A DNA stretch of 64,000 nucleotides from an uncultured bacterium. Lineage in GTDB: Bacteria > DRYD01. The translations under genes and the position numbers were made by a program. The notes below the pieces were generated by a model. That model did not search any database. It saw nothing but the letters and a program-made list of their open reading frames with translations, and was not told the origin of the DNA. This document shows positions 5,362 to 27,508 of this stretch, piece by piece (position 1 is the first letter of the stretch; each line of letters opens with the position of its first letter). Where the stretch lies: contig CAKZQG010000044.1 of the NCBI GenBank assembly GCA_937139605.1, positions 22,360-86,359 on the forward strand, in the 5' to 3' direction.

Positions 5362-5734
5362 TTTTTTATTATTTACAAAGATTTATTATAAAATATTATA
5401 AAAATACTTTTTTCCCTTTTTAAATATTTAGTAAAAATTATTGAAAACGAATTTATTAATAATAATTTTTTAAATCCCTTATTTTAATTTATTTTATTGT
5501 TTTTTTTAAATAATTTTGCAAACTGCCTGTTTAAAGCATGATGGATTTTTTAAGCATTATTTTTTTAAGCATTCCCTAATGCTGTCATTTATTAGCGTAT
5601 GATTTTAAAGCTTAACCTAGAAGCGTTCTATACTTAGGTTCGTTATTTATCATGACAGATACACTTATATCCCAAAATAATTACATTCTCAAGTCTTTAG
5701 CAAATCTTGTTAGATTTAAATTTTAGAGATGAAT

Positions 5735-6805
5735 TTATTTAATACCTAACCAATCGGCTACTTTGGATGTGATTTTTTCACCTACCATAGATCCTCCAGC
5801 GGCTCCAGCTATAGCGATTGCTGCTCCAGCTACAGCACCTATAGTAGTACCAATACCTGGAACCACAGAACCTGCTAATGCACCTGCAGCTGCTCCTGCT
5901 GCAATACCTCCTATTACACCGCCTGTTGTTTCAATAGCTGCTCTTTTTACTGATTTACCTTCATCAATTTTTTCTTTAAAATCAAGTCCAGCTCCAATAG
6001 TAATGGCAATAGGACCAGCTTTCTTGGCTATAGTAGATGCTACTTTACCTATTCCTTTAGCAGAAGCTTTTGAAATACCTTTTTCAGCTACTTCTTTAGA
6101 TACACTTTTTACAGCATCCTTAGCTTTAGAAGATATAACTCTTGGAGCTCTTTTTAGACTTTTAGCAGAATCTATTATTTTATCATCTAATTTGGATAGA
6201 CTTTTTACAGCATCTTTGGCTTTAGAAGATATAACTCTTGGAGCTCTTTTTAGACTTTTAGCAGAATCTATTATTTTATCATCTAATTTAGATATATCTT
6301 TTTTTGCTTCTTCAATAAATTTTTTTGCTTCAGATTTAATAACCTTAGGAGCTTTATTTTTTAATTCTTTAGCTTTAGATAATATTTTATCATCTATATC
6401 AGATAAGGTATCCTTAATTTTACTTTTAGCAAATTTAAAAGCTCCTTTTGACCCCTTTTCTTCAACATGCTTAGCAATTTTTTCTAATTTTTCTCCTTTT
6501 TTTTCAATAGCTTTTTCTATAGCACTTTCTTTTGCTTCTGAGGTTAGATAACTTCCATATTCATTGCCATTATTGTCATTTTTTTCATTTTCTTTTTTAT
6601 TTATATCTAAGGCTTTCTCAAAATTATTCTTTAATTTTTCTTGAATATTAATTTTTTCAGTATTAGATATTTTTAAGTTATTTTGAGTAGTACTTTCTGT
6701 TTTTTTGACATTATTTGAATTATTACTGCTTGATTTATTGACATATGTTTTATCTTGAGGAGAGATTGGATTATTATTTGTAGAATTATTTCTTATTGTG
6801 TTCAT
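5735..6805 (-). CDS. repeat-containing secreted/membrane protein with a C-terminal glycine-zipper hydrophobic tail
   Basis: 356 aa. It has an N/S/T-rich N-terminus and about four 32-aa tandem repeats (KLDDKIIDSAKSLKRAPRVISSKAKDAVKSLS). The C-terminus is GGVIGGIAAGAAAGALAGSVVPGIGTTIGAVAGAAIAIAGAAGG. The antisense ORF 5763..6551 is an artefact of this Gly/Ala-rich coding. Confidence 0.5.
   Translation of the reverse strand: MNTIRNNSTNNNPISPQDKTYVNKSSSNNSNNVKKTESTTQNNLKISNTEKINIQEKLKNNFEKALDINKKENEKNDNNGNEYGSYLTSEAKESAIEKAIEKKGEKLEKIAKHVEEKGSKGAFKFAKSKIKDTLSDIDDKILSKAKELKNKAPKVIKSEAKKFIEEAKKDISKLDDKIIDSAKSLKRAPRVISSKAKDAVKSLSKLDDKIIDSAKSLKRAPRVISSKAKDAVKSVSKEVAEKGISKASAKGIGKVASTIAKKAGPIAITIGAGLDFKEKIDEGKSVKRAAIETTGGVIGGIAAGAAAGALAGSVVPGIGTTIGAVAGAAIAIAGAAGGSMVGEKITSKVADWLGIK
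6103..6296 (-). repeat. near-perfect 96-bp tandem repeat (2 full copies plus degenerate flanking copies) inside the 5735..6805 CDS
   Basis: acagcatccttagctttagaagatataactcttggagctctttttagacttttagcagaatctattattttatcatctaatttgga recurs 96 bp later with two substitutions. Confidence 0.8.
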
Positions 6806-6930
6806 AAATATAGCCCCCCTTTATTAATATAGTTAACCTAATAATTAAATATTCAAAAATAATTAAAATTAAACTATTTTTAGCATTTTTTTAACAATTT
6901 TTTTACAAAATTATTTGAAAATTATATTTA

Positions 6931-8205
6931 TCATATTAAATCATATAATTTTAAAACCTTTTGATCAAGCTCTTTTTGAATATCATTTAATTCTTGTTTT
7001 GCTAATTCTTCTGTTATTTGATTAGAAAACTTTTTCTTTTGTATATCTACAGCTTTATTAAAGATTTCTTCAAATTCTTTAAGCTGTTTAGGCATTGGAA
7101 TAACAATGGGAAGCTGACGAATATCATTCATTTGTAAATTTACTGACGTATTGATGAAAGTTTTCAAGAAATTAAATAAAAGCCTTGAATTAAGCATAGA
7201 AACTAAATATTTATTTGTGGTTAATTGATGTTTAGAGTATAATGACATTGACGCCACATCATTAACTGTTTTTTCTTTTATCCTGCATTTTATAAACATG
7301 CTTTCTTCGTGAATCGGTGTAGACACATTATTCCAACAAAATCCCTCTCTAAAATATAATTGATATCCTTGCCATCTTGCTTTTGGATCTGTTTGTAAAG
7401 ACTTTACATTTTCTTTACTCCAATCTATATAATATACACTCGGAGCCCACCAACGATTACCTTCTTTATCCCCTTTATCATAAGGTACAAAAGTTTTCCC
7501 CCCTTCTATTCCATTTAGTTTTTCATCTTCTGTTAATTTATCAACATCTGCTATCTCATCTTTACTTACTATCCTGTAAATCCAACCTTGTCCAAATATA
7601 TCTCTACCATAATTTTCCTTTAAACTATCAAATAAAGTCCTTATTTCAATTTCTTTTAAATTTTTCAAATAATCAATTACATCTTGCTTAGTTTTTAAGA
7701 AAGAGAGTTCTTTGGGATTTTTATTTTTAATGAATTCTGCTAATTTTTCAGGACGCTCTTTTTTTACTTTTTCAGCCCATTTAGTTCCTTCTAATACTCC
7801 AATATATTTCCCATTATTTCCTGTTGCTAAACCTTGTCCGCCTTCTGTTATTAAACCTAATAAAGTAATATCCCCAGGTTTTAAAGAATTTCTATATTGT
7901 TCTAAATCCTTTTTATACTTTAAAATATTTTTGCTTGTAGATATTTTATCCCACCACTTTTCTATTAATTCTTTTACTTTTTTACCATATTTATTATAAA
8001 TTTTTAGATTAAAATCAGTGGGTATAAAAAAGACATTATTAACCACATTTTTATAAACTTCATCTTTTACTGAATATACTTTTTTATCTTGTAATCCATT
8101 TTTAGCATCTATAAAAGTAATGTAATAATCTGTAGCTTGAGTTTTCTGAATAATTGCTATACAAGTATCAACCATAGCAGCAGAAAATGGATTAGCAGTA
8201 TCCAC
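6931..8205 (-). CDS. C-terminal 424-aa portion of the same methyltransferase (post-motif-V catalytic remainder plus putative target-recognition region)
   Basis: The listed start is GTG with no RBS. Its frame stays open upstream for 86 nt and overlaps the end of ORF 8292..10520 by about 25 nt. The sequence FISSKTFWTIQTKKNLREHIL...LIQLVDTANPFSAAMVDTCIAI continues the MTase fold. Confidence 0.6.
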   Translation of the reverse strand: MDTANPFSAAMVDTCIAIIQKTQATDYYITFIDAKNGLQDKKVYSVKDEVYKNVVNNVFFIPTDFNLKIYNKYGKKVKELIEKWWDKISTSKNILKYKKDLEQYRNSLKPGDITLLGLITEGGQGLATGNNGKYIGVLEGTKWAEKVKKERPEKLAEFIKNKNPKELSFLKTKQDVIDYLKNLKEIEIRTLFDSLKENYGRDIFGQGWIYRIVSKDEIADVDKLTEDEKLNGIEGGKTFVPYDKGDKEGNRWWAPSVYYIDWSKENVKSLQTDPKARWQGYQLYFREGFCWNNVSTPIHEESMFIKCRIKEKTVNDVASMSLYSKHQLTTNKYLVSMLNSRLLFNFLKTFINTSVNLQMNDIRQLPIVIPMPKQLKEFEEIFNKAVDIQKKKFSNQITEELAKQELNDIQKELDQKVLKLYDLI

Positions 8206-8291
8206 TAATTGGATTAGTCTATATTTAAGTATATGTTCTCTTAAATTTTTTTTGGTTTGGATAGTCCAGAAGGTTTTTGAGGATATAAAAG

Positions 8292-10520
8292 TTAAAATCC
8301 ACCTTCTCTTAAAATTTCAAGTCCTTTAAAATAAAAATGATTGTATAAATCATCAGCAAAATTAAAATTCTTTTCTAAAATTTTTTTATACTTTTCTTTT
8401 ACTCCTTTAGTAGATACATAGGGAGGGTTACCTATAATTATATCAAATCCACTTTTTGATTTAAAAACTTCAGAAAAATATACTTTAAAATCAAAATCAT
8501 TATGTCCTAGTGTAATTTTATAGATTATATTATCAATTTCGATTTTTAAATTTTGTTTTTTTAAGGGTTCTGTTTCATTAAAATATTCGGTTTTTAGTTT
8601 TTCAAGGAGGGCAAAGTAAGCATTTTCTAATAATTCACTTTGTAGCTTAAGTAGAGAGTCGCCACAAATGATTTTATAATCTAAATTCGGAAGTGGTTTT
8701 ATATTTTGAAAATCATTTTCATCTACAATTAAGGAAAGCCAAAATCTTAATTTACATATTTCAACAGCCCCTGGATCAATATCAACTCCATAAAGTGAAT
8801 TCTCTATTACATACCTCTTTAAATCATAAGTACTTAATTTTTTATCAAGATATACCGATAGAATCTGTTTTAGTTTTAGTATTTCGTGAAGCATTCCAAT
8901 AGGAAAAGCACCAGAACCAACAGCAGGATCACAGATTTTTATCTCATCTAAAATTTCATAAATTAAATTAGCATTATTAATTATATCTTCAGGTAGTTTA
9001 TGATTATATCTTTCTGTTTTTTTAATTTCTCCTTTTTCAATTTTTTCTTTTTTTTCAGTTGCTATTTTTTCATGCTCTAAAAATAAATCTCCTAATCTTA
9101 CAAACTTTTCTATATCCTCTTTTTTTACCTTTATGTTTTTTAATTTTTTATTAAGTTCTGTTTCAATGTAGTTTATCAAACTTTCTTGACATATGTAATG
9201 AACGATTTCTCGGGGTGTATAATAAACTCCATATTCTTTATTAAATTTGTTTTCTTCTCCTTTTTTACCTGATTTTAAAATATTTACATATTCATTAAAA
9301 TTATCATCTCTTATAGCATTTAATTTTTCATAGATTTTACCAAGTAATTCAGGATCAAGTGCTACTTCTTTTTCAAGTGGTTCTTCCTCATTTACGGTAA
9401 AATTATATCTATCAAAAATATCAAGGATTCCATCTCCTATATCTCCTTCTTTGGTTTTATTTTTATTTGAAAAAAGTTCATTAGGTAAAAGTAAATCAAT
9501 ATTTATCCAATCAAAATTATTTATTGGATCAAAAAGTCCACCATTTAAAAATGGGATTTTACATTTAAAGTAATCGTAATAATGATCGTTTGATCCTCTG
9601 TCAGTTCTTAAAGCTTCGTAAAACAAAGGTTCAAGAATATCATTATAAAAGTTTTGGTAATCAACATATTCTCTATTAAACAATTTTCTTAAGAAATCTT
9701 TTGGTCCAGTTCCCCAAGGTTTCCCTTTCTCTACTCCAAACCATCCCTTCTTTTGAAGAAAATATAAGAATACAATTTGTCCAAGAATTTTCTTAGCAAA
9801 ATCAATTGTACTTATGCTTTTTTCCTTAAACTCATTTTTCAGTTTTTCATTAATATTTATAATTTTATCAAGTTCAAGTTTTATTTTTATAAATAGATCC
9901 CTATATTTTTCAAAGAATTCCTCTGTAACTATCTCAACATCAAATGCTTTTTCAAGATTAGAAAGATTAGGTTTAAAGTTATCATCTTCAAGTATAGGTA
10001 AGAATCTTGATTGTGCAGTATGACTTTTTTCATTAGGACCAACTAAGAAAGACCATCTTTTAGCAGGAGTAAAATCTTGAATAACTTTAACTTTATCAGA
10101 TATTTTAAATTTATATTCTTTTTTTACAAGAGAAAATCTCCAATCTTGTTCATTATCTGATATAAAAGCTACAAGAGCAGCATCTTTTTCACTTGTAGTA
10201 CCTAATTTCCCTTGAAGGTAATAAGCTATGAAGTTTCTTTGAGTATGTCTAGCTTTATAAAGTGAAACATCTTTTTTTAGTTTAACTATTAGAATATCAA
10301 TTATATTTTTTTCTTTATCTATATATCTACCTAATCTTTCCCAAGAGCTGATGAAATCAAGGAATCTTTCAGTTATCCCCTGTGTCCCTGTTCTTGGAGT
10401 AAGTTCTTTTTCTTTATCATAAGTTTTAAGAAGATTAGATATAAATTTATTAAAGTTATCTTTATTAAATGGGTTTTCAAAGGTTTCAATAATTAATTTT
10501 TTTGCCTGTTCTCTGTTCAT
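8292..10520 (-). CDS. N-terminal 742-aa portion of a large gamma-class N6-adenine DNA methyltransferase (Type IIG / BREX PglX / DISARM DrmMI-like); the reading frame ends inside the catalytic domain
   Basis: Motif X YGVYYTPREIV, motif I ICDPAVGSGAFPIG and motif IV IIGNPPYVSTKG occur in gamma-class order. A roughly 440-aa N-terminal domain precedes them. The ORF stops right after the motif-V-like FYFKGLEILREGGF. Confidence 0.7.
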   Translation of the reverse strand: MNREQAKKLIIETFENPFNKDNFNKFISNLLKTYDKEKELTPRTGTQGITERFLDFISSWERLGRYIDKEKNIIDILIVKLKKDVSLYKARHTQRNFIAYYLQGKLGTTSEKDAALVAFISDNEQDWRFSLVKKEYKFKISDKVKVIQDFTPAKRWSFLVGPNEKSHTAQSRFLPILEDDNFKPNLSNLEKAFDVEIVTEEFFEKYRDLFIKIKLELDKIININEKLKNEFKEKSISTIDFAKKILGQIVFLYFLQKKGWFGVEKGKPWGTGPKDFLRKLFNREYVDYQNFYNDILEPLFYEALRTDRGSNDHYYDYFKCKIPFLNGGLFDPINNFDWINIDLLLPNELFSNKNKTKEGDIGDGILDIFDRYNFTVNEEEPLEKEVALDPELLGKIYEKLNAIRDDNFNEYVNILKSGKKGEENKFNKEYGVYYTPREIVHYICQESLINYIETELNKKLKNIKVKKEDIEKFVRLGDLFLEHEKIATEKKEKIEKGEIKKTERYNHKLPEDIINNANLIYEILDEIKICDPAVGSGAFPIGMLHEILKLKQILSVYLDKKLSTYDLKRYVIENSLYGVDIDPGAVEICKLRFWLSLIVDENDFQNIKPLPNLDYKIICGDSLLKLQSELLENAYFALLEKLKTEYFNETEPLKKQNLKIEIDNIIYKITLGHNDFDFKVYFSEVFKSKSGFDIIIGNPPYVSTKGVKEKYKKILEKNFNFADDLYNHFYFKGLEILREGGF

Positions 10521-10688
10521 AGCTTAGTACCTCACTTATCTTTTTGTTTATTTTAAAAACAATTTAGCCAATAGGTACTTTTTTACAATTTGTATATTTA
10601 CAATTTGTATAAGTATTTTTTAAGCAAGCTAAGTAAATATTTAGCTATTATTGATTTTTTTATTATTTTTTGATTAATTAATTTTTTT

Positions 10689-10780
10689 TGCGTCTTTATT
10701 GCGCCTTTATTGCGCCTTTTGCTTTATTGTGTCCCCTTTGTGTCCCCTTTATGTCTCCTTTGTCCCCTTTGTGTCCCTTT
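10689..10780. repeat. array of 9-11-bp GC-containing direct repeats with roughly 11-bp periodicity
   Basis: gcgtctttatt gcgcctttatt gcgccttttgctttatt gtgtcccctt tgtgtcccctt tatgtctcctt tgtcccctt tgtgtccctttt. These are islands of GCGCC / GTCCCC in an otherwise AT-rich region. The array spans the stop codon of ORF 10749..11066 and lies 170-270 bp upstream of the MTase start. Confidence 0.75.
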
Positions 10781-11066
10781 TAATTATTAAAGTATAATGA
10801 GTACCTTTTCCTGTTTCTCCGATTTGCTCAAGTATTCCTTTCTCAACCAAGTCAGATAGATCTCTTGAAGCGGTTTTTTTAGTTGTCTTATTTAGTTCTT
10901 GATATTCTTTATTAGTTATTTTTCCTTTTTCTTTTACATAAATTACTGATTTTATTTGACGTTCATTTAATCCCATTTTTCTCAAATTTTCCTTTTTATG
11001 GAAATAATTTATACAACTAATCATTTCTTGATATATATAATGATAAAATAACTTCTCTTTTTCCAT
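10749..11066 (-). CDS. small winged-helix DNA-binding protein (the true start is probably at the internal Met, giving about 75-90 aa)
   Basis: LNERQIKSVIYVKEKGKITNKEYQELNKTTKKTASRDLSDLVEKGILEQIGETGKGTHYTLI resembles the C-terminal wHTH of AlbA_2/HATPase_c_4-type regulators (ITN.EY......S..TA.RDL..LV..G.L...G.G..T.Y.L). The 5' 50 nt overlap the upstream helicase gene. The C-terminal KGTKGTKET tail is encoded by the repeat array. Confidence 0.45.
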   Translation of the reverse strand: MEKEKLFYHYIYQEMISCINYFHKKENLRKMGLNERQIKSVIYVKEKGKITNKEYQELNKTTKKTASRDLSDLVEKGILEQIGETGKGTHYTLIIKRDTKGTKET

Positions 11067-14000
11067 CTTTTGATGGATTTACATTTATAGAGTGATCTTT
11101 AACAAAAGAAGGATGAATTTCTTTTTGTAATATAGTTAAGACTTTTAAAGGGTTTTCAATTTCTTTGTTAAGCTTTTTAATTTCTTGATTAACTTTTTGG
11201 ATTGTCTTTTTCGGAATTGATCCTATTTCAAGGCTTTTAATAATTATATTTATATAATCTTCTTGTTCTTCTGTTAACTGCTTACTATTTTTTAGTACAG
11301 CTTTTAAAAGATTTTTAAGTTCTTTTGAGGAATCTTTCCCTTTTTTATTAAAATCTTCAGATAAAATTTCTTCTTCATGAATCGCTTGGAAAAATAATAA
11401 TTTATTTTTTTCAAGAAGTTCATAATATCTTTCTAAAGGTAACTTAGTTTTGGGTTCATTTTTTGAACATTCAAAAATTTTTGCTGTCGTTAAAAAATCA
11501 ATCTCTTTTGTTTCATTATCTGAAGATAAATAAAACTTCATTAATTTTCCTTTCCTAAAAAATGTTATAAGTGAATCAGGATATACTAAAGATTTAAGAT
11601 TTTTATCAAAATTTTTTGAAGCTCTTGCTTTTTTAGGTAATTTCTTTATCTTTTCAAATAAATCTGGATTTTCGTCTCTTATTTTCTCAATAAATTTCAA
11701 ATATTTTAGTTCATTTTCTTCAAAAATTTCATCCTCAAGGAAAATTTCTTGAGATGTCAATTTATTAAATAACTCATGAGAAGAGATAGGTTCTCCTTCA
11801 GTTAAAATTTCAGCATCTCCACCAAGAAGACTTAAAAATGCTTCTACCTTTGAACGTGCTATTTTTAATAACTCTATCTCATTCTCTCCCTGTTCTGTTG
11901 GTAAGAAATTAAAAATATAAATTTTATCAAATTGAGTATCTATACGATTTACTCTTCCTACTCTTTGAATTAACTTTGTGGGATTCCAAGGTATATCATA
12001 GTTTATCACTATATTTGATCTATGTAGATTAACCCCTTCTGAAAGAACTTCTGTTGAAACAAGTATTCTATAATCATCTCTTTTATTTTTAGCTCTAGCA
12101 TCAAAATTATCTATAACTTTATTTCTATCCTGTTCTGATGAATTTCCATCAAAACGAAGAGATAATTCACCAAATTTTTCATTTATACTATTAACTAAAT
12201 ATTCTGCAGTTTCTCTCGATTCTGTAAATATTATGACTTTTTTGTCTTTTAAAATAGGATTATTTTCAAGATTATTAAGTAAAACTTCAAGTTTAGGATC
12301 CCTTTCTATTTGATTCCACATTTCTTGAATTTTTTTAAGAGTATTTAGATCTTTTTCTAGAGCTTCTTTAAAATCCTCTCTAAATTGATTAGTTGGATAT
12401 TCATCAGCTTTTCCTTCTTCTATTAAATTTTGTATTGCTTTATCATCATCACTTTCTAAGAATTCTATTATTTTACTTATATGTTTTTTACTTATAAAAA
12501 CTTTTTTATTTTCTTCATATATTTTTATAAACTTTTCATAAGAATCAATAAATCTTGTTATACTTTTTCTAAATGCATAAAAACTACTTTCAAGACGTTT
12601 AATAAGTAAAACTTTCATAAACCCTGCAAGATTTTTTTGCGCTTGTATTTCATTTTTTATGTTATTGTGATTTATTTCATCTTTAAGGTAAAGTAAAGGG
12701 ATGTAACGAGAATAAGTAAGTTCTTTAGTTAAAGTTTCAATAGTTTTATTAAAAATTTCATTCTCTGTTTGATTAAGCTGATAAAGTAAAGGCTTTGGAG
12801 CTTCTATTTTGGGAAATTTAATATTATTACTTTCTAAATCTTCTTTAAAATAAGTTTCTATATCTTTTCTAGTTCTTCTTACCATTACATATTTTAGAAC
12901 TTTATTTCTTATTTCTTTTGCTATTTCCCTTGTTTCTTTTATGTATTCATCATAGTTATTTGAGCGATCAAGATTTTTTAGCTTTGCCTGTAAAGATAAG
13001 AAAAAATTTTCTAAATTTGGAACCCCTGGTATTGTACTTTTTTTAGCATTTTGAAAAAGTTTAAGTTGCGCAAGAATATCTTTTGGAGAGTTATTATAAG
13101 GAGTAGCAGATACAAGAATAACTCTTCTACCTCTACAAATTTTAGAAAGTTTTTCATAACTTATGGTTAATTCATTCCTAAAACGATGAGCTTCATCAAT
13201 TACAATATTTTTATATTCTCTTTGATTAATAAGATCTTCAGCTTCCTCAAGTTTCCCAGTAGATACATATTCTGCAGAAATATTAAAATCAGAAAAAACG
13301 TTTTTCCAAGAGCCTGGATTATTTTTATTAATTAACGAGGGGGGAGCTATAACCATAGTTCTTCCATCAAGCTGAGATACAAGCATAGCACAAACATAAG
13401 TTTTTCCAAGACCTACAACATCTGAAATAAATACTCCCCCATATTCCTCAATTATCTTTTTAGCATTTAATACAGCTTGCTTCTGATATTTAAGCTCCTT
13501 GAAATTTTCAGGTAAATATTTATTATCTAGCTCATTTAGATAATTTAGCTCATCTTTAAAATACTCATACAAAAATTTTAAATATATCTCATAGGGTGTT
13601 ATATTTTCGTTAATATAAGTTTTTTCATTTATCGTATTTACAAAAGTTTCATTAAGTTCCACTGATTTTTGCCAAAGTTCCTCAAATTTAATTTTAGCAA
13701 ATTCGTAATCACTCCTATTTTTTAGTTCAACATTAAACTCAAGATTATTGTCTAAACCTGATTGAGTTAAATTACTAGATCCTGTAATAACTCTCCCTAT
13801 ATCCCTATCTCCTTCCTTAAACGTTATAATATACAATTTAGCATGTAATTTTTTGGAAGGATAAGCTCTTATTTCAAGCTTACCTGATTTTATCCATTCA
13901 ATAAATTTCTTAACTCCTTTCTCTACACTTTCACTATCTTCTGATTCTTCTAACTCTTCTATTATTTTTTCTTCTAAAAATTGCTTTACTTCATAATTAG

Positions 14001-14280
14001 AGGGATTAAAAAAAGTTGTATTTTCAGATTTTGATTTTGTTATTAACTCATAAATTTTCTCTGAAGCATCAATTCCTACAAGAATCCTTATTTTTTCTAT
14101 ATTTTCTAAAGCTTTGTATATATTATGAAATCCACTTAAATAAAAATATCCTACTATACAATCAAAAAATCTAGCATCGTTTAACAATATATTAAACCTA
14201 TCTTTTAACGTTTTACCTTGTTCATTAGTTATAAATGTTAAATCTAAGGAATTGAATTTTAAGTTTTCCATTTCTTTCAT
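11017..14280 (-). CDS. PLD-family (HKD) nuclease domain fused to an SNF2-family helicase
   Basis: 1087 aa. The HKD motif is KLHAKLYIITF...GSSNLTQSGL (about aa 150-190). The SNF2 N-lobe has GLGKT and the DEAH box VIDEAHRFRN. The helicase C-lobe has VSTEVLSEGVNLHRSNIVINYDIPWNPTKLIQRVGRVNRI. A roughly 270-aa C-terminal extension follows. Confidence 0.75.
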   Translation of the reverse strand: MKEMENLKFNSLDLTFITNEQGKTLKDRFNILLNDARFFDCIVGYFYLSGFHNIYKALENIEKIRILVGIDASEKIYELITKSKSENTTFFNPSNYEVKQFLEEKIIEELEESEDSESVEKGVKKFIEWIKSGKLEIRAYPSKKLHAKLYIITFKEGDRDIGRVITGSSNLTQSGLDNNLEFNVELKNRSDYEFAKIKFEELWQKSVELNETFVNTINEKTYINENITPYEIYLKFLYEYFKDELNYLNELDNKYLPENFKELKYQKQAVLNAKKIIEEYGGVFISDVVGLGKTYVCAMLVSQLDGRTMVIAPPSLINKNNPGSWKNVFSDFNISAEYVSTGKLEEAEDLINQREYKNIVIDEAHRFRNELTISYEKLSKICRGRRVILVSATPYNNSPKDILAQLKLFQNAKKSTIPGVPNLENFFLSLQAKLKNLDRSNNYDEYIKETREIAKEIRNKVLKYVMVRRTRKDIETYFKEDLESNNIKFPKIEAPKPLLYQLNQTENEIFNKTIETLTKELTYSRYIPLLYLKDEINHNNIKNEIQAQKNLAGFMKVLLIKRLESSFYAFRKSITRFIDSYEKFIKIYEENKKVFISKKHISKIIEFLESDDDKAIQNLIEEGKADEYPTNQFREDFKEALEKDLNTLKKIQEMWNQIERDPKLEVLLNNLENNPILKDKKVIIFTESRETAEYLVNSINEKFGELSLRFDGNSSEQDRNKVIDNFDARAKNKRDDYRILVSTEVLSEGVNLHRSNIVINYDIPWNPTKLIQRVGRVNRIDTQFDKIYIFNFLPTEQGENEIELLKIARSKVEAFLSLLGGDAEILTEGEPISSHELFNKLTSQEIFLEDEIFEENELKYLKFIEKIRDENPDLFEKIKKLPKKARASKNFDKNLKSLVYPDSLITFFRKGKLMKFYLSSDNETKEIDFLTTAKIFECSKNEPKTKLPLERYYELLEKNKLLFFQAIHEEEILSEDFNKKGKDSSKELKNLLKAVLKNSKQLTEEQEDYINIIIKSLEIGSIPKKTIQKVNQEIKKLNKEIENPLKVLTILQKEIHPSFVKDHSINVNPSKDGKREVILSLYISRND

Positions 14281-14311
14281 ATTATCTATAATAAAAAATA
14301 TGATCTTTAAT

Positions 14312-17300
14312 TTAATTAATTTCGTTTAGAATATATTTTTTAGTTAAGGTATTAGATTTAAGGAATTCTTGATAAGTATCTTGGAAAATAATATACCCTC
14401 CTTCATCTGCAGCTTTAGGACCTACTTCTATTACATAATCAGCATTCTTTATAACTTCTATATTATGTTCTACTATTACAATAGTTGCTCCCTTATTTAG
14501 CAATTGATAAATAACATTTAGAAATTTTTGGACATCTAAATAATGTAATCCAGTAGTAGGTTCATCTAAGAGATAAATAGATTTATTAACATTCCTTTTA
14601 GATAGTTCATAAGCTAATTTAATTCTTTGACTTTCTCCACCTGATAAAGACGGAGAAATCTGACCTAACTTGATATACCCTAATCCTATGTCATCTAAAA
14701 ATTTTAATTTCTCTTCAACATTTTTAAACCCTTTAAACACATTAATAGCTTCTTTTACAGTTAATTCCAAGACATCATAAATACTATATTTATTATCAAA
14801 TTTAACACTTAATGTTTCTAAATTATATCTCTTACCATCGCAAGATTCACATTTTATATATAAATCAGGTAAAAAATTCATATCTAATTTAATAAAACCT
14901 TCTCCTTTACATTTATCACATCTACCCTCAGGTAAATTATAACTAAATCTACTGGCATTAAACCCTAATCTCTTTGATTGAGGTAAATTAGCAAATATAG
15001 ATCTTATCTCATCAAATACTTTAGTATAAGTAGCAACTGTAGATCTGGGAGTTTTACCTATAGGTTTTTGATCTACATAACTTACTTTACTAATTTTTTG
15101 CTTATCAAACTCTATATCTCCGTAAATTTTTTCATCAAATACACTAATAACCTCTTGATTTAATTCGGAAGCTAATTTGTAATATAAAGCATCTAAAATA
15201 GAAGTTTTACCACTACCTGATACTCCTGTTATAACTGTTAATCTATTTAATGGAATCTTTATAGATATATTTTTTAAATTGTTTAACTTAACATTTTTTA
15301 AATATATATAATCTTCTTGATTGAATTTTTTAATATAGTCCTTTTCAATGTTTTTAACTTTTTCTTTATCAACTAAATATTTTAATATAGGGCTATTTAA
15401 AAATTTTTCATATAAATTTAAAATCTCTTTTTTAAGTAATTCCGGTAAATCTAATATTTTTAATATTTCTTCTAAATTTCCATTGTTGTTATACAAAGAA
15501 TTTAGAAAATCAAAATTAAAAGTATTAAATAGTTCAAAATATTTATTAAGAAAATCGGAAAATAAAAGGTACCCACCATTTTGCCCACCTTCATATCCTA
15601 ACTCTACTAAAAAATCAGCGTTCTTAATTACTTGTTTATCATGTTCTACAATTATAATTGTATTATTTAATTCTTTTAGTTTTAAGATGCTTTTAATAAC
15701 TTTATCTACATTATAAGGGTGTAATCCAATAGTTGGCTCATCTAAGACGTATATAATACCGGATAACTGAGCTCCTAATTGTGAAGCTATTTTAATTCTT
15801 TGTGCCTCTCCTGAAGATAAATTAGAAGCAGTCCTATATAAATCTAAATACCCTAAATCTAATTCAATTATAAAATTTAACCTTTTTACAACCTCATCTA
15901 GTAGATTTTGTACAATTTCTCTTTGTTTTTGAGTTAATTCTAAAGAATTCAGTATATTTTTTATTTGACTAATTGGCTTAGAGGCTAAATCTCCAATACT
16001 ATAATACTTTTCATCATTTGTTTTTAACTTAACACTTAAAGCTATTTTATTTAATCTATAACCATTACATTCTTTACATTTAACTTCGAAAACTAAATTA
16101 GATAAATCAAAATCATAATTGTAATACAATTCATTAACGAATTCTCTAATCCCTTCAAAATTAGAATCTCCATAAATAAGTTTCTCTATTTTTTCTTTAT
16201 CAATATTTTTTAGAGGTTTATTAATATCAATGTCGTTAGCATAGCAAAAGTTCCTAACTTTTTCCCACCAATAATTTAATTTATACCAAGAATATTGGTT
16301 TTTAGGAAAAATTTTAATAGCTCCTTCTTTTATTGATAAATTATAATCTATTATTTTATTTAGATTAAAATCAATAACATTTCCTAAGCCTTTACATTTT
16401 TCGCAAGCTCCTAAAGGGGTATTAAAAGAAAATAATCTCCAACTTATTTCAGGATAACTAAAACCACAATTATAACAACTAAAGCTCCCTGAATATAATA
16501 AATATTTATCATCTACAAAAATCTTAACCAATTTCTGCTTTTCTTTATCTATAGATAGTTTCAAAGTAGTATCCATCGCTAACGATATCGAATTTAATAA
16601 TCTACCTTTATTATTTTCATTTACTATAAGATTATCTACTATGACATCTATATTATGTTTTTCAAATTTATTTAATTCAATTTCATCGTCTATATCAAAT
16701 TTAATATCATTAACAATAACCTTAGTAAAACCCATTTTTTTAATTTTGTTTAAAGTGATTTTATGGTCTCCTTTTTTATATCTAATTACAGGAGCTAAGA
16801 TAGATATTTTTTTATCTTTGTAATTTAGAAGAATTTGTTCTAAAATTTCGCTTGGCTCTAATTTGGATATAACTATATTACAAAATGGGCAAAATGGAAT
16901 CCCAATAGAAGCATATATTAACCTTAAATAATCATAGATTTCAGTTATAGTCCCGACAGTAGAACGAGGATTTAGATTTTTAATCCTTTGATCAATTGAG
17001 ATAGTAGGTCTTAAACCTTCTATTTTATCTACATTAGGCTTTTCTAATTTAGTTAAAAATTGCTTTGCATAATTAGAAATAGCTTCTAAATATCTTCTTT
17101 GACCTTCAGAATATATAACTTCATAAGCTAAACTACTCTTACCACTACCAGAAACTCCACATATAACTGTTATTACATTATGCGGAATTTTTAAATTTAA
17201 TCCTTTTAAATTGTTTTGCTTTACATTTGTTATATCTATATAACTCTGAACTTCTGGATCTTCAAAAAATCTTTCTTTATAAAATGGAATATCACTTTTT

Positions 17301-17326
17301 ACAATAAAACTATTATCTCTACTCAA
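14312..17326 (-). CDS. uvrA: excinuclease ABC subunit A
   Basis: 1004 aa. The N-terminus NNLKGLNLKIPHNVITVICGVSGSGKSSLAYEVIYSEGQRRYLEAISNYAKQFL is the canonical UvrA N-terminus. It carries two ABC ATPase modules (second Walker A GVSGSGKTS) and CxxC zinc fingers. Confidence 0.85.
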   Translation of the reverse strand: MSRDNSFIVKSDIPFYKERFFEDPEVQSYIDITNVKQNNLKGLNLKIPHNVITVICGVSGSGKSSLAYEVIYSEGQRRYLEAISNYAKQFLTKLEKPNVDKIEGLRPTISIDQRIKNLNPRSTVGTITEIYDYLRLIYASIGIPFCPFCNIVISKLEPSEILEQILLNYKDKKISILAPVIRYKKGDHKITLNKIKKMGFTKVIVNDIKFDIDDEIELNKFEKHNIDVIVDNLIVNENNKGRLLNSISLAMDTTLKLSIDKEKQKLVKIFVDDKYLLYSGSFSCYNCGFSYPEISWRLFSFNTPLGACEKCKGLGNVIDFNLNKIIDYNLSIKEGAIKIFPKNQYSWYKLNYWWEKVRNFCYANDIDINKPLKNIDKEKIEKLIYGDSNFEGIREFVNELYYNYDFDLSNLVFEVKCKECNGYRLNKIALSVKLKTNDEKYYSIGDLASKPISQIKNILNSLELTQKQREIVQNLLDEVVKRLNFIIELDLGYLDLYRTASNLSSGEAQRIKIASQLGAQLSGIIYVLDEPTIGLHPYNVDKVIKSILKLKELNNTIIIVEHDKQVIKNADFLVELGYEGGQNGGYLLFSDFLNKYFELFNTFNFDFLNSLYNNNGNLEEILKILDLPELLKKEILNLYEKFLNSPILKYLVDKEKVKNIEKDYIKKFNQEDYIYLKNVKLNNLKNISIKIPLNRLTVITGVSGSGKTSILDALYYKLASELNQEVISVFDEKIYGDIEFDKQKISKVSYVDQKPIGKTPRSTVATYTKVFDEIRSIFANLPQSKRLGFNASRFSYNLPEGRCDKCKGEGFIKLDMNFLPDLYIKCESCDGKRYNLETLSVKFDNKYSIYDVLELTVKEAINVFKGFKNVEEKLKFLDDIGLGYIKLGQISPSLSGGESQRIKLAYELSKRNVNKSIYLLDEPTTGLHYLDVQKFLNVIYQLLNKGATIVIVEHNIEVIKNADYVIEVGPKAADEGGYIIFQDTYQEFLKSNTLTKKYILNEIN

Positions 17327-17409
17327 ATTAGAATTTAGCCTTCCCCCGACAAAACTTTTATAACTTAATGAAATTTTTATGAAAAAATTATTCTTTAATT
17401 AATATAAGC

Positions 17410-18366
17410 TTAAATTAAACTAAGTGTAATAGGGGTAGAACCGTATGTTTCAAGTACTAATTTAGATGGAATATTATTTTCAGGGATCTCAAAAACTAAG
17501 GTCCCAAAATTCATCCCTGATGGTAATAAAACCTGTAATATATAACTACTTAACCCTTCTATATATTCATATTTATAGCCTTTATCATCATATAATACAA
17601 ATTTTCCAGTATAAAGCTGAACTTTATTAGATAAATTTTGCTGAGATACTGTTAAAACTATAAATTTAAATCCTGGTTGAGGAGTATATAACCCCTTTAT
17701 TAATTTAACTTCTTTTAATTCACTAACAGTTATTTTAAATTCCTCATTACTAGCAGAACGAGGAATAAAAACCGTAGGAGGAGTAGAAACAGGCAATTTA
17801 TTTATATTCTTAGAATCACCATTATCATTATTATCTATAAATGGAATCTCATATTTCTTTGTATCTTTTTTATCAGTATTTTTATTATTATCCTTTTTAT
17901 TATTATCAATATCTTTATTTTCAATTTCATTATTTTCAATTTTTAAATTAGCTTTAGAAGTATTACTCTTATAAGTAGGCTTATAAATAGTAATAATTCT
18001 GTTAAGCTGATCCCATTTAATTTGATATCCCAAAGGAACTAAAACATCTCTTAATGCAATTAATAATTTATTTTTATAAACAACCGCTTTAGTATATACC
18101 CTTAAATTAGAAACAATAAGTGCTTTTTCATTAGGATCCCAATAAACCGGACTATCTAATATAGAAGCTAAAACTTGAGTATCCACATAGGAAATATTAT
18201 TAAAAATATATGCTTTATATGAATTATTATCATAAGTTAAATTAGCCTCTACATAAGCAAAAGACTTATAACTTATAAAAAGCAAATTAATCAAAAAAAT
18301 AGCAAATAAAAAAATAATATAAACATATATAAATTTAAGTATATTCTTTTTACGAAATGCGTTCAT
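17410..18366 (-). CDS. hypothetical membrane-anchored protein (N-terminal TM, C-terminal beta-rich domain)
   Basis: 318 aa. It has an N-terminal hydrophobic helix and a K/D/N-rich linker. The C-terminal region resembles DUF4352-like immunoglobulin-fold lipoproteins. No confident family assignment. Confidence 0.3.
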   Translation of the reverse strand: MNAFRKKNILKFIYVYIIFLFAIFLINLLFISYKSFAYVEANLTYDNNSYKAYIFNNISYVDTQVLASILDSPVYWDPNEKALIVSNLRVYTKAVVYKNKLLIALRDVLVPLGYQIKWDQLNRIITIYKPTYKSNTSKANLKIENNEIENKDIDNNKKDNNKNTDKKDTKKYEIPFIDNNDNGDSKNINKLPVSTPPTVFIPRSASNEEFKITVSELKEVKLIKGLYTPQPGFKFIVLTVSQQNLSNKVQLYTGKFVLYDDKGYKYEYIEGLSSYILQVLLPSGMNFGTLVFEIPENNIPSKLVLETYGSTPITLSLI

Positions 18367-18428
18367 AATGAACTGCCTCCCACAAACATATATTCACCAT
18401 TAAAATCTAAAAATACACTCTAAAATTA

Positions 18429-21104
18429 TTATTTAGTTTCAACAAGATCTACTTTTTTAGAAGACAATTTAATAGTAGCTTGAGCAGCAGCTAATCTTGC
18501 AACAGGCACCCTATAAGGAGAACAACTTACATAATCAATACCAATAGAATAAGCAAATTCAATACTCTTAGGATCTCCCCCATGCTCTCCACATATCCCT
18601 GTTTCTATATTTTTAACTTTTTTAGCTTTTTCTAAACAGATCTTCATTAATTGTCCAACTCCCTCAGTATCCAAAGACTGGAAAGGATTAAACTCTAAAA
18701 TTTTATGTTCAAGATAATATGGAATAAATTTAGCTTCAGCATCATCCCGAGAATACCCAAAAGTCATCTGAGTTAAATCGTTAGTACCAAAGGAGAAAAA
18801 CTCAGTATATTGTGCGATTTTATCAGCAATTAAAGCAGCACGCGGTACCTCTATCATTGTACCAAACATATAATCTATATTAACTCCTTCTTCTTGTAAA
18901 ACTCTCTTAGCCACTTCCTCTAATCTTTCTTTTACAAATTTTATTTCATTAACGTGTCCAACTAAAGGTACCATAACTTCTGGAAAAACTTTTATTCCTT
19001 CTTTATGAGCTTTAGCAGCAGCTTTAAATATAGCAGTAACTTGCATCTCATTTATCTCTGGATAAACTATCCCCAACCTACATCCTCTAAATCCTAACAT
19101 TGGATTAGCTTCCCTTAGATTTTGTGATTTAATCAACATTTTTTGATATTTTTCAACTAATGAATTATGCCCCCTTTGCTTTGCATCCTTTATTAATTCA
19201 TTTAATATTTCCTCTTTAGGTAAAAATTCATGTAGCGGTGGATCTAATAACCTAATAATAACAGGATAACCTTTCATTTCTTTAAAAATATTATAAAAAT
19301 CATCTATTTGCATAAGCAATAATTTATCTAAAGCTTTTTTACGTTCTTCATAGGTTTCGGCAATAATCATTTCTTGCATAACAGGTAACCTATCTTCTGC
19401 CATAAACATATGCTCTGTTCTACATAATCCAATACCTTTAGCTCCATAGTAATAAGCTTTAGCAGCATCTTGTGGGGTATCAGCATTAGCTCTTACCCCT
19501 ATCTTTGCCACTTCATCCGCTAACTCTAATAACTCAAAAAATTCTTTACTAGGTTTCGGATCAATTAAAGGAACTTCACCTAAATAAACATTCCCTGTAG
19601 TACCATCTATAGTTATCATATCATATTCCTTAACAATAACATCATTAACTTTAAAAAATTTATTTTCTAAATCTATTTTAATTTCTTCAGCTCCAACAAC
19701 TGCAGGTTTCCCCATCCCCCTTGCTACTACTGCAGCATGACTAGTATTACCCCCTCTACTAGTTAAAACACCCTTTGCTCTAGCTAATCCATGAATATCA
19801 TCAGGATTAGTTTCCGGTCGAACTAATATAACCTTTTGGCCTTCTTCACCCAATTTAGCAGCTAACTTAGAATCAAATATTACTTTCCCAGAGGCAGCTC
19901 CAGGTGAAGCATTTAATCCCTTAGCAATTGGTTTTTCTTTATAACTAGGATCAACTTGAGGATGTAATAATTTTTCTATTTCTTCAGTAGAAACCCTTAA
20001 TAAAGCTTCTTCTTTAGTAATTAATCCTTCTTTATAAAAAGATATAGCAATTTTAACAGAAGCAGCAGGTGTTCTCTTACCATTTCTCGTTTGAAGCATA
20101 TACAATTTTCCGTCTTCTATAGTAAATTCCATATCCTGCATATCTTTATAATGCTTTTCCAATTTTTCAGCAATTTTAAGTAATTGATCATAAATTTCAG
20201 GCCATTGCTTTAACATATTAACAATAGGTTCAGGGGTTCTAATACCTGCAACAACATCCTCACCTTGTGCATTAATTAAATATTCCCCATATAAAATTCT
20301 TTTACCATCAATAAATTCAACTTCACCTGTAGAAGGATTCCTACTAAAAGCAACCCCAGTAGCAGATCTCTCATTTAAATTCCCAAAAACCATAGAAACT
20401 ATATTAACAGCAGTTCCCCAATCTTCAGGAATATTATATAATCTTCTATATTCTTTTGCTCTCTCATTATTCCACGAATTGAAAACAGTCCTTATAGATA
20501 ATTCCAATTGCTTATAAACGTCCTGAGGAAACTCTTTGTTATATTTAGCATACTCTTGTTTATATAATTCTATTATATTTTTTAGATCATTAGAATCAAG
20601 TTCTATATCAAGTTTTTTATTATGTTTTTCTTTATAATGATGTAAAATATCTTCAAAAGTTTTAATTCCCATAACAGTAGAACCAAACATTTGTAATAAT
20701 CTTCTATAAGAATCAAGAGCAAATCTTTCATTAGTTTTTTTAGCTAAAGCTAACAAAGTTTGATCATTTAATCCAACATTAAGAATAGTATCCATCATTC
20801 CAGGCATAGAAGCGGGAGCTCCAGATCTAACTGAAACAAGTAAAGGCATACCCTCAGTATCCCCAAATTTCCTATTCATTCTTCTTTCTAGTTCTTTTAT
20901 AGAATCTTTAACTAAAGGCATTAATTTATTAATAATTTCTTCTGGATTATTTAAATATAATTTACAAACTTCAGTAGTAATAGTAAAACCTGGTGGAACT
21001 GGCAATCCTAAGTTAGTCATTTCAGCTAAATTAGCACCCTTACCTCCTAATAATAATTTCATATCAGCTTTTCCTTCTTCAAAAAAATATATCCATTTAC
21101 TCAT
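18429..21104 (-). CDS. ppdK: pyruvate, phosphate dikinase
   Basis: 891 aa. The N-terminus is MSKWIYFFEEGKADMKLLLGGKGANLAEMTNLGLPVPPGF. The phospho-His region is GGNTSHAAVVARGMGKPAV. The PEP-utilising C-terminus is GICGEHGGDP. Confidence 0.9.
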   Translation of the reverse strand: MSKWIYFFEEGKADMKLLLGGKGANLAEMTNLGLPVPPGFTITTEVCKLYLNNPEEIINKLMPLVKDSIKELERRMNRKFGDTEGMPLLVSVRSGAPASMPGMMDTILNVGLNDQTLLALAKKTNERFALDSYRRLLQMFGSTVMGIKTFEDILHHYKEKHNKKLDIELDSNDLKNIIELYKQEYAKYNKEFPQDVYKQLELSIRTVFNSWNNERAKEYRRLYNIPEDWGTAVNIVSMVFGNLNERSATGVAFSRNPSTGEVEFIDGKRILYGEYLINAQGEDVVAGIRTPEPIVNMLKQWPEIYDQLLKIAEKLEKHYKDMQDMEFTIEDGKLYMLQTRNGKRTPAASVKIAISFYKEGLITKEEALLRVSTEEIEKLLHPQVDPSYKEKPIAKGLNASPGAASGKVIFDSKLAAKLGEEGQKVILVRPETNPDDIHGLARAKGVLTSRGGNTSHAAVVARGMGKPAVVGAEEIKIDLENKFFKVNDVIVKEYDMITIDGTTGNVYLGEVPLIDPKPSKEFFELLELADEVAKIGVRANADTPQDAAKAYYYGAKGIGLCRTEHMFMAEDRLPVMQEMIIAETYEERKKALDKLLLMQIDDFYNIFKEMKGYPVIIRLLDPPLHEFLPKEEILNELIKDAKQRGHNSLVEKYQKMLIKSQNLREANPMLGFRGCRLGIVYPEINEMQVTAIFKAAAKAHKEGIKVFPEVMVPLVGHVNEIKFVKERLEEVAKRVLQEEGVNIDYMFGTMIEVPRAALIADKIAQYTEFFSFGTNDLTQMTFGYSRDDAEAKFIPYYLEHKILEFNPFQSLDTEGVGQLMKICLEKAKKVKNIETGICGEHGGDPKSIEFAYSIGIDYVSCSPYRVPVARLAAAQATIKLSSKKVDLVETK

Positions 21105-21151
21105 AACTTTTTACCCCCTTTTATATAAAACATAAGTTAATTTACATTAAA

Positions 21152-23068
21152 CTAAATACTCCTAACATTAGCTTGAAAACTTGATATATAATCATTAAAA
21201 TCATTCAATATTTTCTCTAATTCTATAATATTATTTTCCATAGTTTCAAGTAACTCCTGTTTTTCAGATTCATCTGTTATATCATTAAATAAACTTATAT
21301 TATTTCTAATATCTGCTAAAACAACTAAAATATTTTCGATTTTAGATAATAATCCAATAATTTCTCCTTCCTTAGGAAGATTTTCTAAATTCTTATAAAT
21401 AGATTCAAAATTAATAAATGAATTATTAATTAAATTGATAAAAGCATATAAAAACTTAGAATAATCTGTGTTATTTAAATAATTTTCTCTGAATTTATCA
21501 AATATTAATTTTAAATTAGATTTAGTTTCAATTGGAGGTTTTATTAATTTAGAATTACATTTAACACAATATTCATTATAATATTCATTTTCAAAACCAC
21601 ATTTAACACATATTATTTTTTTAACAACAAATAATTCCTCAACTTCCTTATAATCTTGTAGAATATTTAGCAATATATTCTTTATTTTATTTTCAAAATA
21701 CAACCATAAATCAACTAATAAATCTTTATTTTCATAATCACTTAGATAATTATTTACTATATTCAAAAACTCATTAAATAAATCAATATTATCAAGTATT
21801 ATTTTATCATAAGGAGTAAGTAAATTATGTTCATTTTTTTGTAAATCAGTAATAACATCATTAAAATAAATATAAAAATTGTAAATAGCTGAAATAGATA
21901 AATCTTCTGAATATACTCTATAAACTATATCATATAGATTTTCAAATACCCCAGCACCTTTTAACTCCTTAGAATCAAATCTAATATGAATCTCATTTTC
22001 TAATTTATTCATAGAATTTAAAATATCATAAAATAAATTAGCCCAATCAGAAGAAATCTCTACCTTATTAGGATAATTATTTACAATTTGTAAATATAAA
22101 CTATTAATAAAATCTTTAATTTTATTTATTTTATTTTTTATATTTTCATATGATTCATTTTTAAGAGCTTGCTTATTAAAAATTCTATTTATATAAACTT
22201 GATACCATTCAAAAGCTTTATCAAAAGAATTCCTTACTTTATACTCATATAAATTTTTAAAAGAATTAATAGAAACATAATTCTCATAAATCCAATAAGA
22301 ATAAAGAATAAATTCGAACCAGACATTAGCAAAAGGAATCCTTGTTAAAGCAATATCCTTTGAAACAATATAATACTCATAATCACTTGCCTTACTATCT
22401 ATTTCCTGAATATATTCATCTATTTCTTTTAATTGCATAATATAATCATTAGCTTTACTTAGAACACTTCTATCCTCTAATGAATCTACAACATCTTTTA
22501 TAAAAGAAATTATTTTTAAAATATTTTCTTGTAAATCTTGGCCCAATAAATCTCCCCTTATCTTTAAAAAAACCTCATAATAATCCTTTAATTCATTTAA
22601 TAATAACTTCATATAACTAGAATAATTTAAATCCATTTTATTAAAAAATGAATCTAAAACAACTAATTCCCAGGATTTTAATTCATTATTAGGAAACAAA
22701 GTAAAAACACTACTTAAATAATTTAAAAAATTAGATAAATTATTTAAAAATTCATTTAAAAAAATTAAAATATCTTCTTTAGATGAAAAATCAGAAATCC
22801 CTAAAACCTTTTCCTTATTTTGAAATATATATTCAAAAATTGATAAAACTTCTTCATTATTTATTTCTTTAAAAAAAATTATTCTAAACAAATCAATATG
22901 TTCCGAAATTTTATTAAAAAATGAATTAAAATTATTTCCAAATTTATCTAATACCTTTAAATAATCAGAATTATCAATGGTAATTAAAAGATAAAGATCA
23001 TTTAAATATATAATTGATTTATTTAAATAGAAGATAGATTCTTCCAGTATGTTTTTCAACATTACCAA
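21152..23068 (-). CDS. hypothetical protein with a C-terminal zinc-ribbon (CxxC...CxxC)
   Basis: 638 aa. It is N/Y/F-rich and low-complexity but has an intact long ORF. It contains VKCGFENEYYNEYCVKCNSKL. No recognisable catalytic motif. Confidence 0.3.
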   Translation of the reverse strand: MVMLKNILEESIFYLNKSIIYLNDLYLLITIDNSDYLKVLDKFGNNFNSFFNKISEHIDLFRIIFFKEINNEEVLSIFEYIFQNKEKVLGISDFSSKEDILIFLNEFLNNLSNFLNYLSSVFTLFPNNELKSWELVVLDSFFNKMDLNYSSYMKLLLNELKDYYEVFLKIRGDLLGQDLQENILKIISFIKDVVDSLEDRSVLSKANDYIMQLKEIDEYIQEIDSKASDYEYYIVSKDIALTRIPFANVWFEFILYSYWIYENYVSINSFKNLYEYKVRNSFDKAFEWYQVYINRIFNKQALKNESYENIKNKINKIKDFINSLYLQIVNNYPNKVEISSDWANLFYDILNSMNKLENEIHIRFDSKELKGAGVFENLYDIVYRVYSEDLSISAIYNFYIYFNDVITDLQKNEHNLLTPYDKIILDNIDLFNEFLNIVNNYLSDYENKDLLVDLWLYFENKIKNILLNILQDYKEVEELFVVKKIICVKCGFENEYYNEYCVKCNSKLIKPPIETKSNLKLIFDKFRENYLNNTDYSKFLYAFINLINNSFINFESIYKNLENLPKEGEIIGLLSKIENILVVLADIRNNISLFNDITDESEKQELLETMENNIIELEKILNDFNDYISSFQANVRSI

Positions 23069-23154
23069 ATACCCCCCCTTTTAAAAAAAAATAAAAATAA
23101 CGTTATCTTCGTTGCTCTACTTAATAAAATATTAAGAACATACATAAAACTAAA

Positions 23155-23415: not shown

Positions 23416-23443
23416 ATTATTTCTCCCCTTAATTATTTTTTAT

Positions 23444-23740: not shown

Positions 23741-23761
23741 ATTAGGATTTATATTTAAGTA

Positions 23762-23847: not shown

Positions 23848-23910
23848 TACTACAATATCCTTATATTATCTTATTCTCTATACATCTTATTTTCCCTCTT
23901 TTAAAATTAA

Positions 23911-25005: not shown

Positions 25006-25011
25006 AAAAAA

Positions 25012-25845: not shown

Positions 25846-25847
25846 CT

Positions 25848-27494: not shown

Positions 27495-27508
27495 ATTAAA
27501 TTATTCAA

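Follow-up and report, generated by a model that had tools for sequence, protein, structure and literature searches.

We analysed a 64,000-nt stretch of DNA from an uncultured bacterium (assembly GCA_937139605.1, contig CAKZQG010000044.1, positions 22,360 to 86,359 of the forward strand; hereafter the window), in which a large DNA methyltransferase (MTase) gene appears as two overlapping open reading frames (ORFs) on the minus strand. Judged from their sequences, ORFs 8292..10520 and 6931..8316 (below, ORF1 and ORF2) are the halves of one Eco57I/PglX-type N6-adenine MTase of approximately 1,196 amino acids (aa), and their joining is far beyond chance. We assign a probability of about 75% to a genuine and recent inactivating deletion of one G in this gene, which is part of a strain-variable defence module. 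The features on which this reading rests are as follows.

8292..10520, minus strand: 5' fragment of the broken MTase gene (ORF1), 742 aa, ending in ...LREGGF and the stop; matched by the PADLOC profile PDLC03596 on residues 1–741 with 864 bits
6931..8316, minus strand: 3' fragment of the same MTase gene (ORF2), in the −1 frame, 461 open codons; the orthologues P0001 and P0002 are contiguous here
8299..8300, minus strand: lesion site, coding GG against GGG in three intact alleles (GGTGGGATT changed to GGTGGATT)
8246..8253, minus strand: coding-strand A8 run past the stop of ORF1, in frame with the 3' fragment; no role in the frameshift

The two methyltransferase ORFs

ORF1 begins with an ATG at 10520, preceded by GTGAGGT 9 nt upstream, and encodes the N-terminal domain, a helical region, and S-adenosylmethionine (AdoMet) motif I (DPAVGSGAF), followed by motif IV (NPPY) and the helix of motif V. 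It terminates with ...GGT GGA TTT TAA, an end already recognized in a first-pass annotation made from the sequence alone. The frame through motifs IV–VIII and the target-recognition region (TRD) is interrupted by this stop after residue 742, and the remainder lies in the −1 frame, where the 3' fragment supplies the remaining part of the Rossmann core (ILTFISSKTFW..., motifs VI–VIII) and the C-terminal TRD. The first start codon of this fragment is GTG at 8205 (ORF 6931..8205, 424-aa product). As the first-pass annotation had remarked, it is not preceded by a ribosome-binding site (RBS): the upstream sequence, AAATATAGACTAATCCAATTA, contains no Shine-Dalgarno element, and since a start signal is lacking, the 3' fragment is probably not translated. 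The stop-to-stop frames of ORF1 and ORF2 overlap by 25 nt, exactly as estimated earlier, while the frame upstream of the GTG is open for 111 nt, back to 8316, and not for 86 nt as had been stated. One base added inside the overlap produces a single stop-free ORF of 1,196 aa (hereafter the repaired protein), in line with the contiguous protein of ~1,195 aa that had been anticipated.

Profile searches treat the repaired protein as one enzyme. The Pfam Eco57I domain (PF07669) matches residues 574–775 in a single stretch over the junction at residue 742, covering profile positions 1–165 of 171 and scoring 118.4 bits against a cut-off of 25.3. The PADLOC profile PDLC03596 (REase_MTase_IIG), which gives 864 bits for ORF1 alone, extends to residues 1–860 of the repaired protein with 899 bits (E = 1e-270). 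Both motif I DPAVGSGAF and GNPPYV are present in ORF1 and invariant in an alignment of 30 homologues. In the same alignment, the residues G741, I746, T750, K757, N759, and R761, which flank the junction, are invariant as well. The solved MTase CamA (7LNI) aligns colinearly with the repaired protein from GNPPY through LEILREGGILTFISSKTFW, that is, across the junction.

The best 120 homologues listed, most of them of ~1,150–1,250 aa, have a single ORF over the junction, and many of them align with 100% of the repaired query; P0001 and P0002, the closest of those listed, are 93% and 91% identical to the repaired protein. In the AlphaFold model of the orthologue P0001 (predicted local distance difference test score, pLDDT, 81; predicted template-modelling score, pTM, 0.79), the junction falls within beta-strand 737–748 of the catalytic core. 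The combined evidence from homology, alignment, and the model places the split after the helix of motif V and before the strand of motif VI; hence it cuts a folded domain and does not coincide with a domain boundary. The window copy is a pseudogene of the Eco57I-type gamma-class N6-adenine DNA methyltransferase family. The initial suggestion of a single-nucleotide frameshift inside the MTase catalytic domain is thereby upheld, as the domains are continuous after repair and the sister alleles are intact. The comparison of orthologous loci proposed at that stage gave the same answer: syntenic sister loci and listed homologues carry the gene as one ORF.

The lesion and its sister alleles

Intact syntenic loci with ~91–98% DNA identity to the window were available as L001/L009 (JGI Ga0079997), L002 (Ga0599197), and L008 (Ga0079995). 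Their MTase genes encode proteins of 1,192, 1,195, and 1,198 aa that are 91–93% identical to the repaired protein, and all have GGG at the lesion site. In the aligned junctions, the intact alleles read GGTGGGATTTTAAC and the window reads GGTGGATTTTAAC; over a longer stretch the intact alleles read GAAGGTGGGATTTTAAC, with the L002 variant GAAAGTGGG..., and the window reads GAAGGTGGATTTTAAC. Because three intact alleles have GGG where the window has GG, the event is, on this alignment, a one-G deletion in a G3 run (C on the plus strand, 8299–8300) at codons 741–742. The ancestral junction peptide is ...LREGGILTFISS... (...REGGILTFISS), and the stop is now encountered two codons past the lesion.

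These alleles also refine the earlier account of the frameshift. An additional T in the T4 run, proposed there as the repair, does restore the frame, but the historical event differs, being a G3-to-G2 change in the alignment with the sister alleles. The peptide derived from that repair, ...GGFLTFISS..., is accordingly replaced by the ...REGGILTFISS implied by the sister alleles. The A8/T8 homopolymer at 8246–8253 exists, as A8 on the coding strand, but it is irrelevant to the frame, as it is in frame and past the stop; the tract is A8 in the intact L002 and AAAAAGAA in the intact L001.

Apart from the frameshift, the 3.6-kb reading frame is open throughout, and for this reason the inactivation looks recent. 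The most variable part of the gene is its 3' end: the last ~200 aa (window 6931–7530) show 49–88% identity between strains, compared to 95–100% elsewhere. Such hypervariability is expected of a specificity domain under diversification, and at the level of sequence it suggests that the enzyme of each strain recognizes a different target.

Alternative explanations of the split

Could the missing G be an error of sequencing or assembly, the true genome having GGG and an intact gene? A one-base homopolymer miscount is a classic artefact, and this is the single lesion in a gene that is intact for the rest. However, the JGI contig Ga0116210_1000145 (L010, 74.7 kb, sample 3300010288) is 100.000% identical to the window over 20,957 bp (window 7410..28366), GG included, and its gene calls are of 742 aa and 424 aa. 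The exact 424-aa product of ORF2 is recorded both in NCBI/Logan/ENA (541-kb contig) and in JGI (1.07-Mb contig), and the two records differ solely in whether the GTG start is given as M or V. Moreover, G3 is a very short run, whereas many intragenic A7–A8 runs of the AT-rich window, eleven of them in the MTase gene, have not been miscounted, and the 64-kb window contains no further pair of adjoining out-of-frame ORFs that resembles a split gene. We therefore consider the homopolymer error that the first-pass annotation had left as an option to be unlikely, given the same allele in several public assemblies and no other broken gene seen in the window. Look-ups of the exact 742-aa ORF1, helicase, UvrA, 356-aa ORF, and 424-aa ORF2 products in the gene-position index returned no record, which is partly explained by different translation of GTG and TTG starts in the sources; look-ups by 318-aa and 329-aa neighbour products did return records.

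A reversible ON/OFF switch of the MTase through repeat-length slippage would be reminiscent of Campylobacter jejuni, where a 1,243-aa Type IIG gene is divided at a G9 tract into cj0031/cj0032 (PMC4889913). The architecture and the position of the split are alike (~62% into the gene here and ~69% there), and G2 and G3 alleles are both found in related strains. Nevertheless, such a switch is very improbable: the tract has only 2–3 G, while at least seven are needed for high-frequency slippage, and the G2 and G3 haplotypes differ by many other substitutions (7–11% at the protein level), which marks them as lineages that have diverged, not as variants of a switch. Nor can the A8 run rescue the frame, as it lies past the stop. 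Each contig of the available assemblies has one tract length. Full-length enzyme might also be produced by recoding, through programmed −1 ribosomal frameshifting or transcriptional slippage, and the 25-nt frame overlap and the T-rich region speak in its favour. A −1 shift is needed, however, and the interval from 8316 to 8292 has no X XXY YYZ heptamer in the zero frame; slippage by +1 on TTT_TAA leads into the third frame, which stops after ~22 codons; and close orthologues are single-frame, so that no recoding signal is conserved. Of all the explanations considered, recoding is the one we least expect. The expression by slippage or homopolymer-length variation envisaged in the first-pass annotation is not borne out, as the indel is in the G2/G3 run and not in T4 or A8, and neither a slippery site nor a long tract can restore the frame.

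The remaining explanation is that the two ORFs form a truly split two-subunit enzyme, or that the fragments or the partner are still functional, with the HKD-SNF2 protein defending alone and the 742-aa product serving as a scaffold. The helicase is indeed intact with all motifs present, but ORF2 has neither a start codon nor an RBS near the junction, the break falls inside a beta-strand of the Rossmann core, and a two-ORF layout is observed in none of the best 120 listed homologues and in none of the four sister loci, only in copies of the identical allele. The scenario is thus quite unlikely as a whole, and its first part, named at the outset as what would overturn a frameshift, is excluded by the contiguous orthologues.

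Three observations weigh against the reading of a genuine and recent inactivation. The assemblies that share the allele may partly derive from the same samples, so that a systematic error keeps a small probability. The signal of relaxed constraint in the window lineage, where singleton substitutions are shifted to non-synonymous ones in line with inactivation (30 non-synonymous and 21 synonymous, as against 59 and 80 in the intact lineages), is marginal (Fisher p = 0.05) and confounded by recombination in the variable TRD. Finally, a nuclease-SNF2 protein of the related Hma/BR family defends on its own in Halomonas (PMC11232893), which also counts in favour of a partner with retained function. 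On balance, the split of the MTase is ordinary pseudogenization; neither a switch nor recoding nor a natural split accounts for it, and an error probably does not either. Of the options listed in the first-pass annotation, it is the pseudogene that the one-G deletion relative to the intact sister alleles supports.

The defence module and its relatives

The other features of the module, and the segment in which it is located, are the following.

11017..14280, minus strand: partner HKD (PLD-type) nuclease-SNF2 helicase, 1,087 aa, intact, upstream of the MTase
10749..10976, minus strand: winged helix-turn-helix (wHTH) remnant, 75 aa, the C-terminal leftover of a 446-aa SLFN_AlbA_2 + HATPase_c_4 gene
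5407..14310, no strand assigned: strain-variable segment with the helicase, the wHTH remnant, both MTase halves, and a 356-aa ORF; adjoins uvrA (14312..17326)

The partner protein contains PLDc_2 (residues 52–203), SNF2-rel_dom, and Helicase_C domains with the motifs HAK...GSSN, GLGKT, DEAH, and QRVGRVNR; it is 96.7% identical to its orthologues, and its best PADLOC match is 'HKD+Snf2' C3a139 (162 bits). The nuclease/helicase partner was rightly described as intact from the start, being a 1,087-aa ORF with all catalytic motifs. Between the helicase and the MTase, the L001 and L002 loci have an intact SLFN_AlbA_2 + HATPase_c_4 gene (446/408 aa), most of which has been removed from the window by a ~1.08-kb deletion at an A(A/G)AGGA (AGGA) microhomology near 10990; the RBS of this middle gene now precedes an internal Met. 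The L008 locus shares the deletion and lost another 140 bp, yet keeps an intact MTase, and hence loss of the middle gene is compatible with an intact MTase.

Two arrays of 11-bp tandem repeats, at 10684–10719 and 10727–10781, separate the wHTH remnant from the MTase promoter region. On the coding strand they consist of three copies of GGCGCAATAAA and five copies of AAAGGGGACAC, the latter encoding a KGDKGD-like tail of the middle gene, and copy number varies among L001, L002, and L008. A perfect 15-bp direct repeat, two copies of TATACAAATTGTAAA at 10582–10611, lies ~60–90 nt upstream of the MTase start, is shared with L001 and L002, and is a candidate operator or promoter element. A promoter and terminator scan gave 23 sites against 28 expected and was thus uninformative.

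The island with the module is located directly downstream of uvrA, and its neighbours are uvrA, a Cu_amine_oxidN1 protein, PPDK, and unannotated ORFs. In the L011 locus (Logan SRR24490442), segment 5407–14310 (~8.9 kb) is absent, and ~0.8 kb (7909–8732) with a 211-aa ORF is found instead. The 1,004-aa ATPase encoded at 14312..17326, which has mad3/mad8 matches, was considered as a component of the system and rejected, as it is a genuine UvrA (TIGR00630, 970 bits against a cut-off of 730). Thus, one population harbours an allelic series comprising an intact module, a module with the middle gene deleted, a module with the MTase frameshifted, and absence of the module, which is typical flux of a defence island.

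The pairing of the helicase with the MTase is also found in L001, L002, L008, L005 (Brachyspira metagenome-assembled genome, MAG), and L007 (Thermodesulfovibrionales MAG), while L006 has the MTase alone. In L003 (WOR-3 MAG), the HKD-SNF2 helicase gene is fragmented into four ORFs (6761–10008) and the start of the adjacent MTase is intact, and in L004 (Omnitrophota MAG) the helicase is reduced to a 76-aa remnant (9213–9440); in these loci decay of the helicase goes in the direction opposite to that in the window. The slot between the helicase and the large MTase seems, from the loci compared, to take variable accessory genes. In L002 (8263–9833) it contains an N6_N4 MTase with a 236-aa ORF, and in L007 (8026–9967) an N6_N4 MTase with an MjaI-like restriction endonuclease. 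Such small Type II restriction-modification (R-M) pairs are defence genes nested inside another defence module.

Large MTase homologues in L004 (10001–14209) and L006 (10001–14050) have an in-frame insertion of ~250 aa near query residue 560, in the interval between motif I and NPPY; their lengths are 1,402 aa and, in L006, where the locus ends, at least 1,350 aa. Among the database homologues, P0060 (1,455 aa) has a Y1_Tnp Pfam match.

The window has a G+C content of 21–31%, and long ORFs cover 91% of its 64 kb. Its ThrS is 100% identical to proteins recorded as 'MAG: bacterium' and ~70% identical to that of Candidatus Calescibacterium, the contigs related to the window come from JGI metagenomes, and the remoter MTase relatives are mostly from thermophiles and hot-spring MAGs. 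The host is an uncultured bacterium of hot springs, and Candidatus Calescibacterium is a distant relative of it. Elsewhere in the window, at 28367–29734 on the minus strand, a 455-aa FeoB-like membrane protein matches only positions 194–594 of FeoB and has no N-terminal G domain; no ORF for the missing domain was found upstream of this gene.

Known systems and the proposed working of the module

The best full-length Foldseek match to the intact orthologue is to PglX/BrxX structures (9EWZ, 8C45, 8Q56; E = 5e-18, ~1,170 columns, template-modelling score 0.46). The proteins share a size of ~1,200 aa and the order of an N-terminal domain, a helical region, a gamma-class NPPY N6A MTase, and a C-terminal specificity region. 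On the other hand, identity is only 13–14%, the partner here is an HKD-SNF2 helicase, and the BREX partners PglZ, BrxC, and BrxA/B/L were not found by profile searches of the window locus, L001, and L002. A resemblance to Type IIG/IIL enzymes (Eco57I/MmeI/Cj0031) is seen in the 899-bit match to PDLC03596 and in the Pfam Eco57I and MmeI_Mtase matches. With Cj0031 in particular, the MTase has in common a strain-hypervariable TRD (for Cj0031, PMC4889913) and a gene that shows as two ORFs, as cj0031/cj0032, but that gene is split by a hypermutable G9 tract and this one by a G3-to-G2 deletion. No PD-(D/E)XK nuclease domain was recognizable in the MTase N-terminus by domain search or in the structure model; residues 1–240 (window 9801–10520), which are conserved, are modelled confidently (pLDDT 88) as a mixed alpha/beta domain with no PDB match and no Pfam family. 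The closest solved structure by sequence is CamA of Clostridioides difficile (7LNI, E = 1e-12), in which DIIIGNPPY...LEILREGGILTFISS aligns over the junction with DYIVGNPPY...IDILKQGGIGSVITP. CamA, however, is an orphan MTase of 577 aa that lacks the 500-aa N-terminal extension and has no nuclease partner.

Cj0031-like genes beside a PLD+SNF helicase gene have been noted before (PMC9881135), and thus the two-gene module of an HKD-SNF2 protein and a PglX-like MTase, although little studied, has already been sighted in the literature. Type-2 BREX-related (BR) systems combine an HKD endoDNase-Swi2/Snf2 helicase with an N6-MTase, a DUF499 AAA+ ATPase, and DUF3780, and have been proposed to act like R-M systems, the MTase marking self DNA and the HKD-helicase restricting (Rakesh & Krishnan 2026, PMC12839542). 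The N-terminal HKD nuclease joined to a Swi2/Snf2 helicase next to an N6-MTase is present here, but membership in Type-2 BR was rejected, as neither DUF499 nor DUF3780 is found in the window locus, L001, L002, L005, or L007. Hma, defined in PADLOC by the helicase HmaA, the m5C MTase HmaB, and the ATPase HmaC (Payne et al. 2021, PMC8565338), was likewise rejected: the MTase here is of the N6A type (NPPY), HmaC is absent, and the match to HmaA is only 90 bits. Class 1 DISARM also has an SNF2 helicase, a PLD nuclease, and a large Eco57I-like MTase, and the window proteins give weak matches to DrmD (125 bits) and DrmMI (101 bits). It was rejected in the absence of DrmA/DrmB (DUF1998), with a score of 146 against the NCBIfam cut-off of 610.

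In our reading, the module is a two-gene, R-M-like defence system formed by the HKD-nuclease/SNF2-helicase and the large MTase. The MTase/TRD subunit would mark self DNA and supply sequence recognition, and the HKD-SNF2 protein would translocate on and cut unmarked DNA. By analogy with the logic of Type I, Type III, and BREX systems and with the BR proposal (PMC12839542), we infer that the nuclease depends on the MTase, that is, the helicase-nuclease would need the MTase/TRD subunit for target selection. The 742-aa product retains the AdoMet pocket and NPPY but is devoid of the motif VI strand, of everything that follows in the Rossmann core, and of the entire TRD. Because these parts are missing, it should be unable to fold or to recognize DNA. 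Loss of the MTase would then switch off the whole module rather than cause self-restriction: if targeting by the nuclease depends on the MTase, the frameshift silences the module without self-restriction, which would explain why the allele persists in several assemblies.

It is doubtful, though conceivable, that the G2 allele is a selected OFF state, in which the HKD-SNF2 helicase-nuclease is still active, either without methylation-based targeting or with another partner. If so, an R-M-like module would have been turned into a stand-alone nuclease-helicase defence, and the locus would be a natural experiment in which an uncharacterized two-gene system tolerates the loss of its MTase.

For the favoured reading, a recent inactivating deletion, the practical consequences are that both ORFs should be annotated as one frameshifted PglX/Eco57I-type MTase pseudogene and not as two genes, and that counts of defence repertoires should treat the module as inactive. 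As ordinary decay of a defence gene, the MTase frameshift does not challenge current understanding. It does contribute to a natural allelic series, within one hot-spring population, for a poorly studied two-gene module, and it suggests that the module tolerates loss of the MTase, which argues that targeting by the nuclease depends on this subunit.

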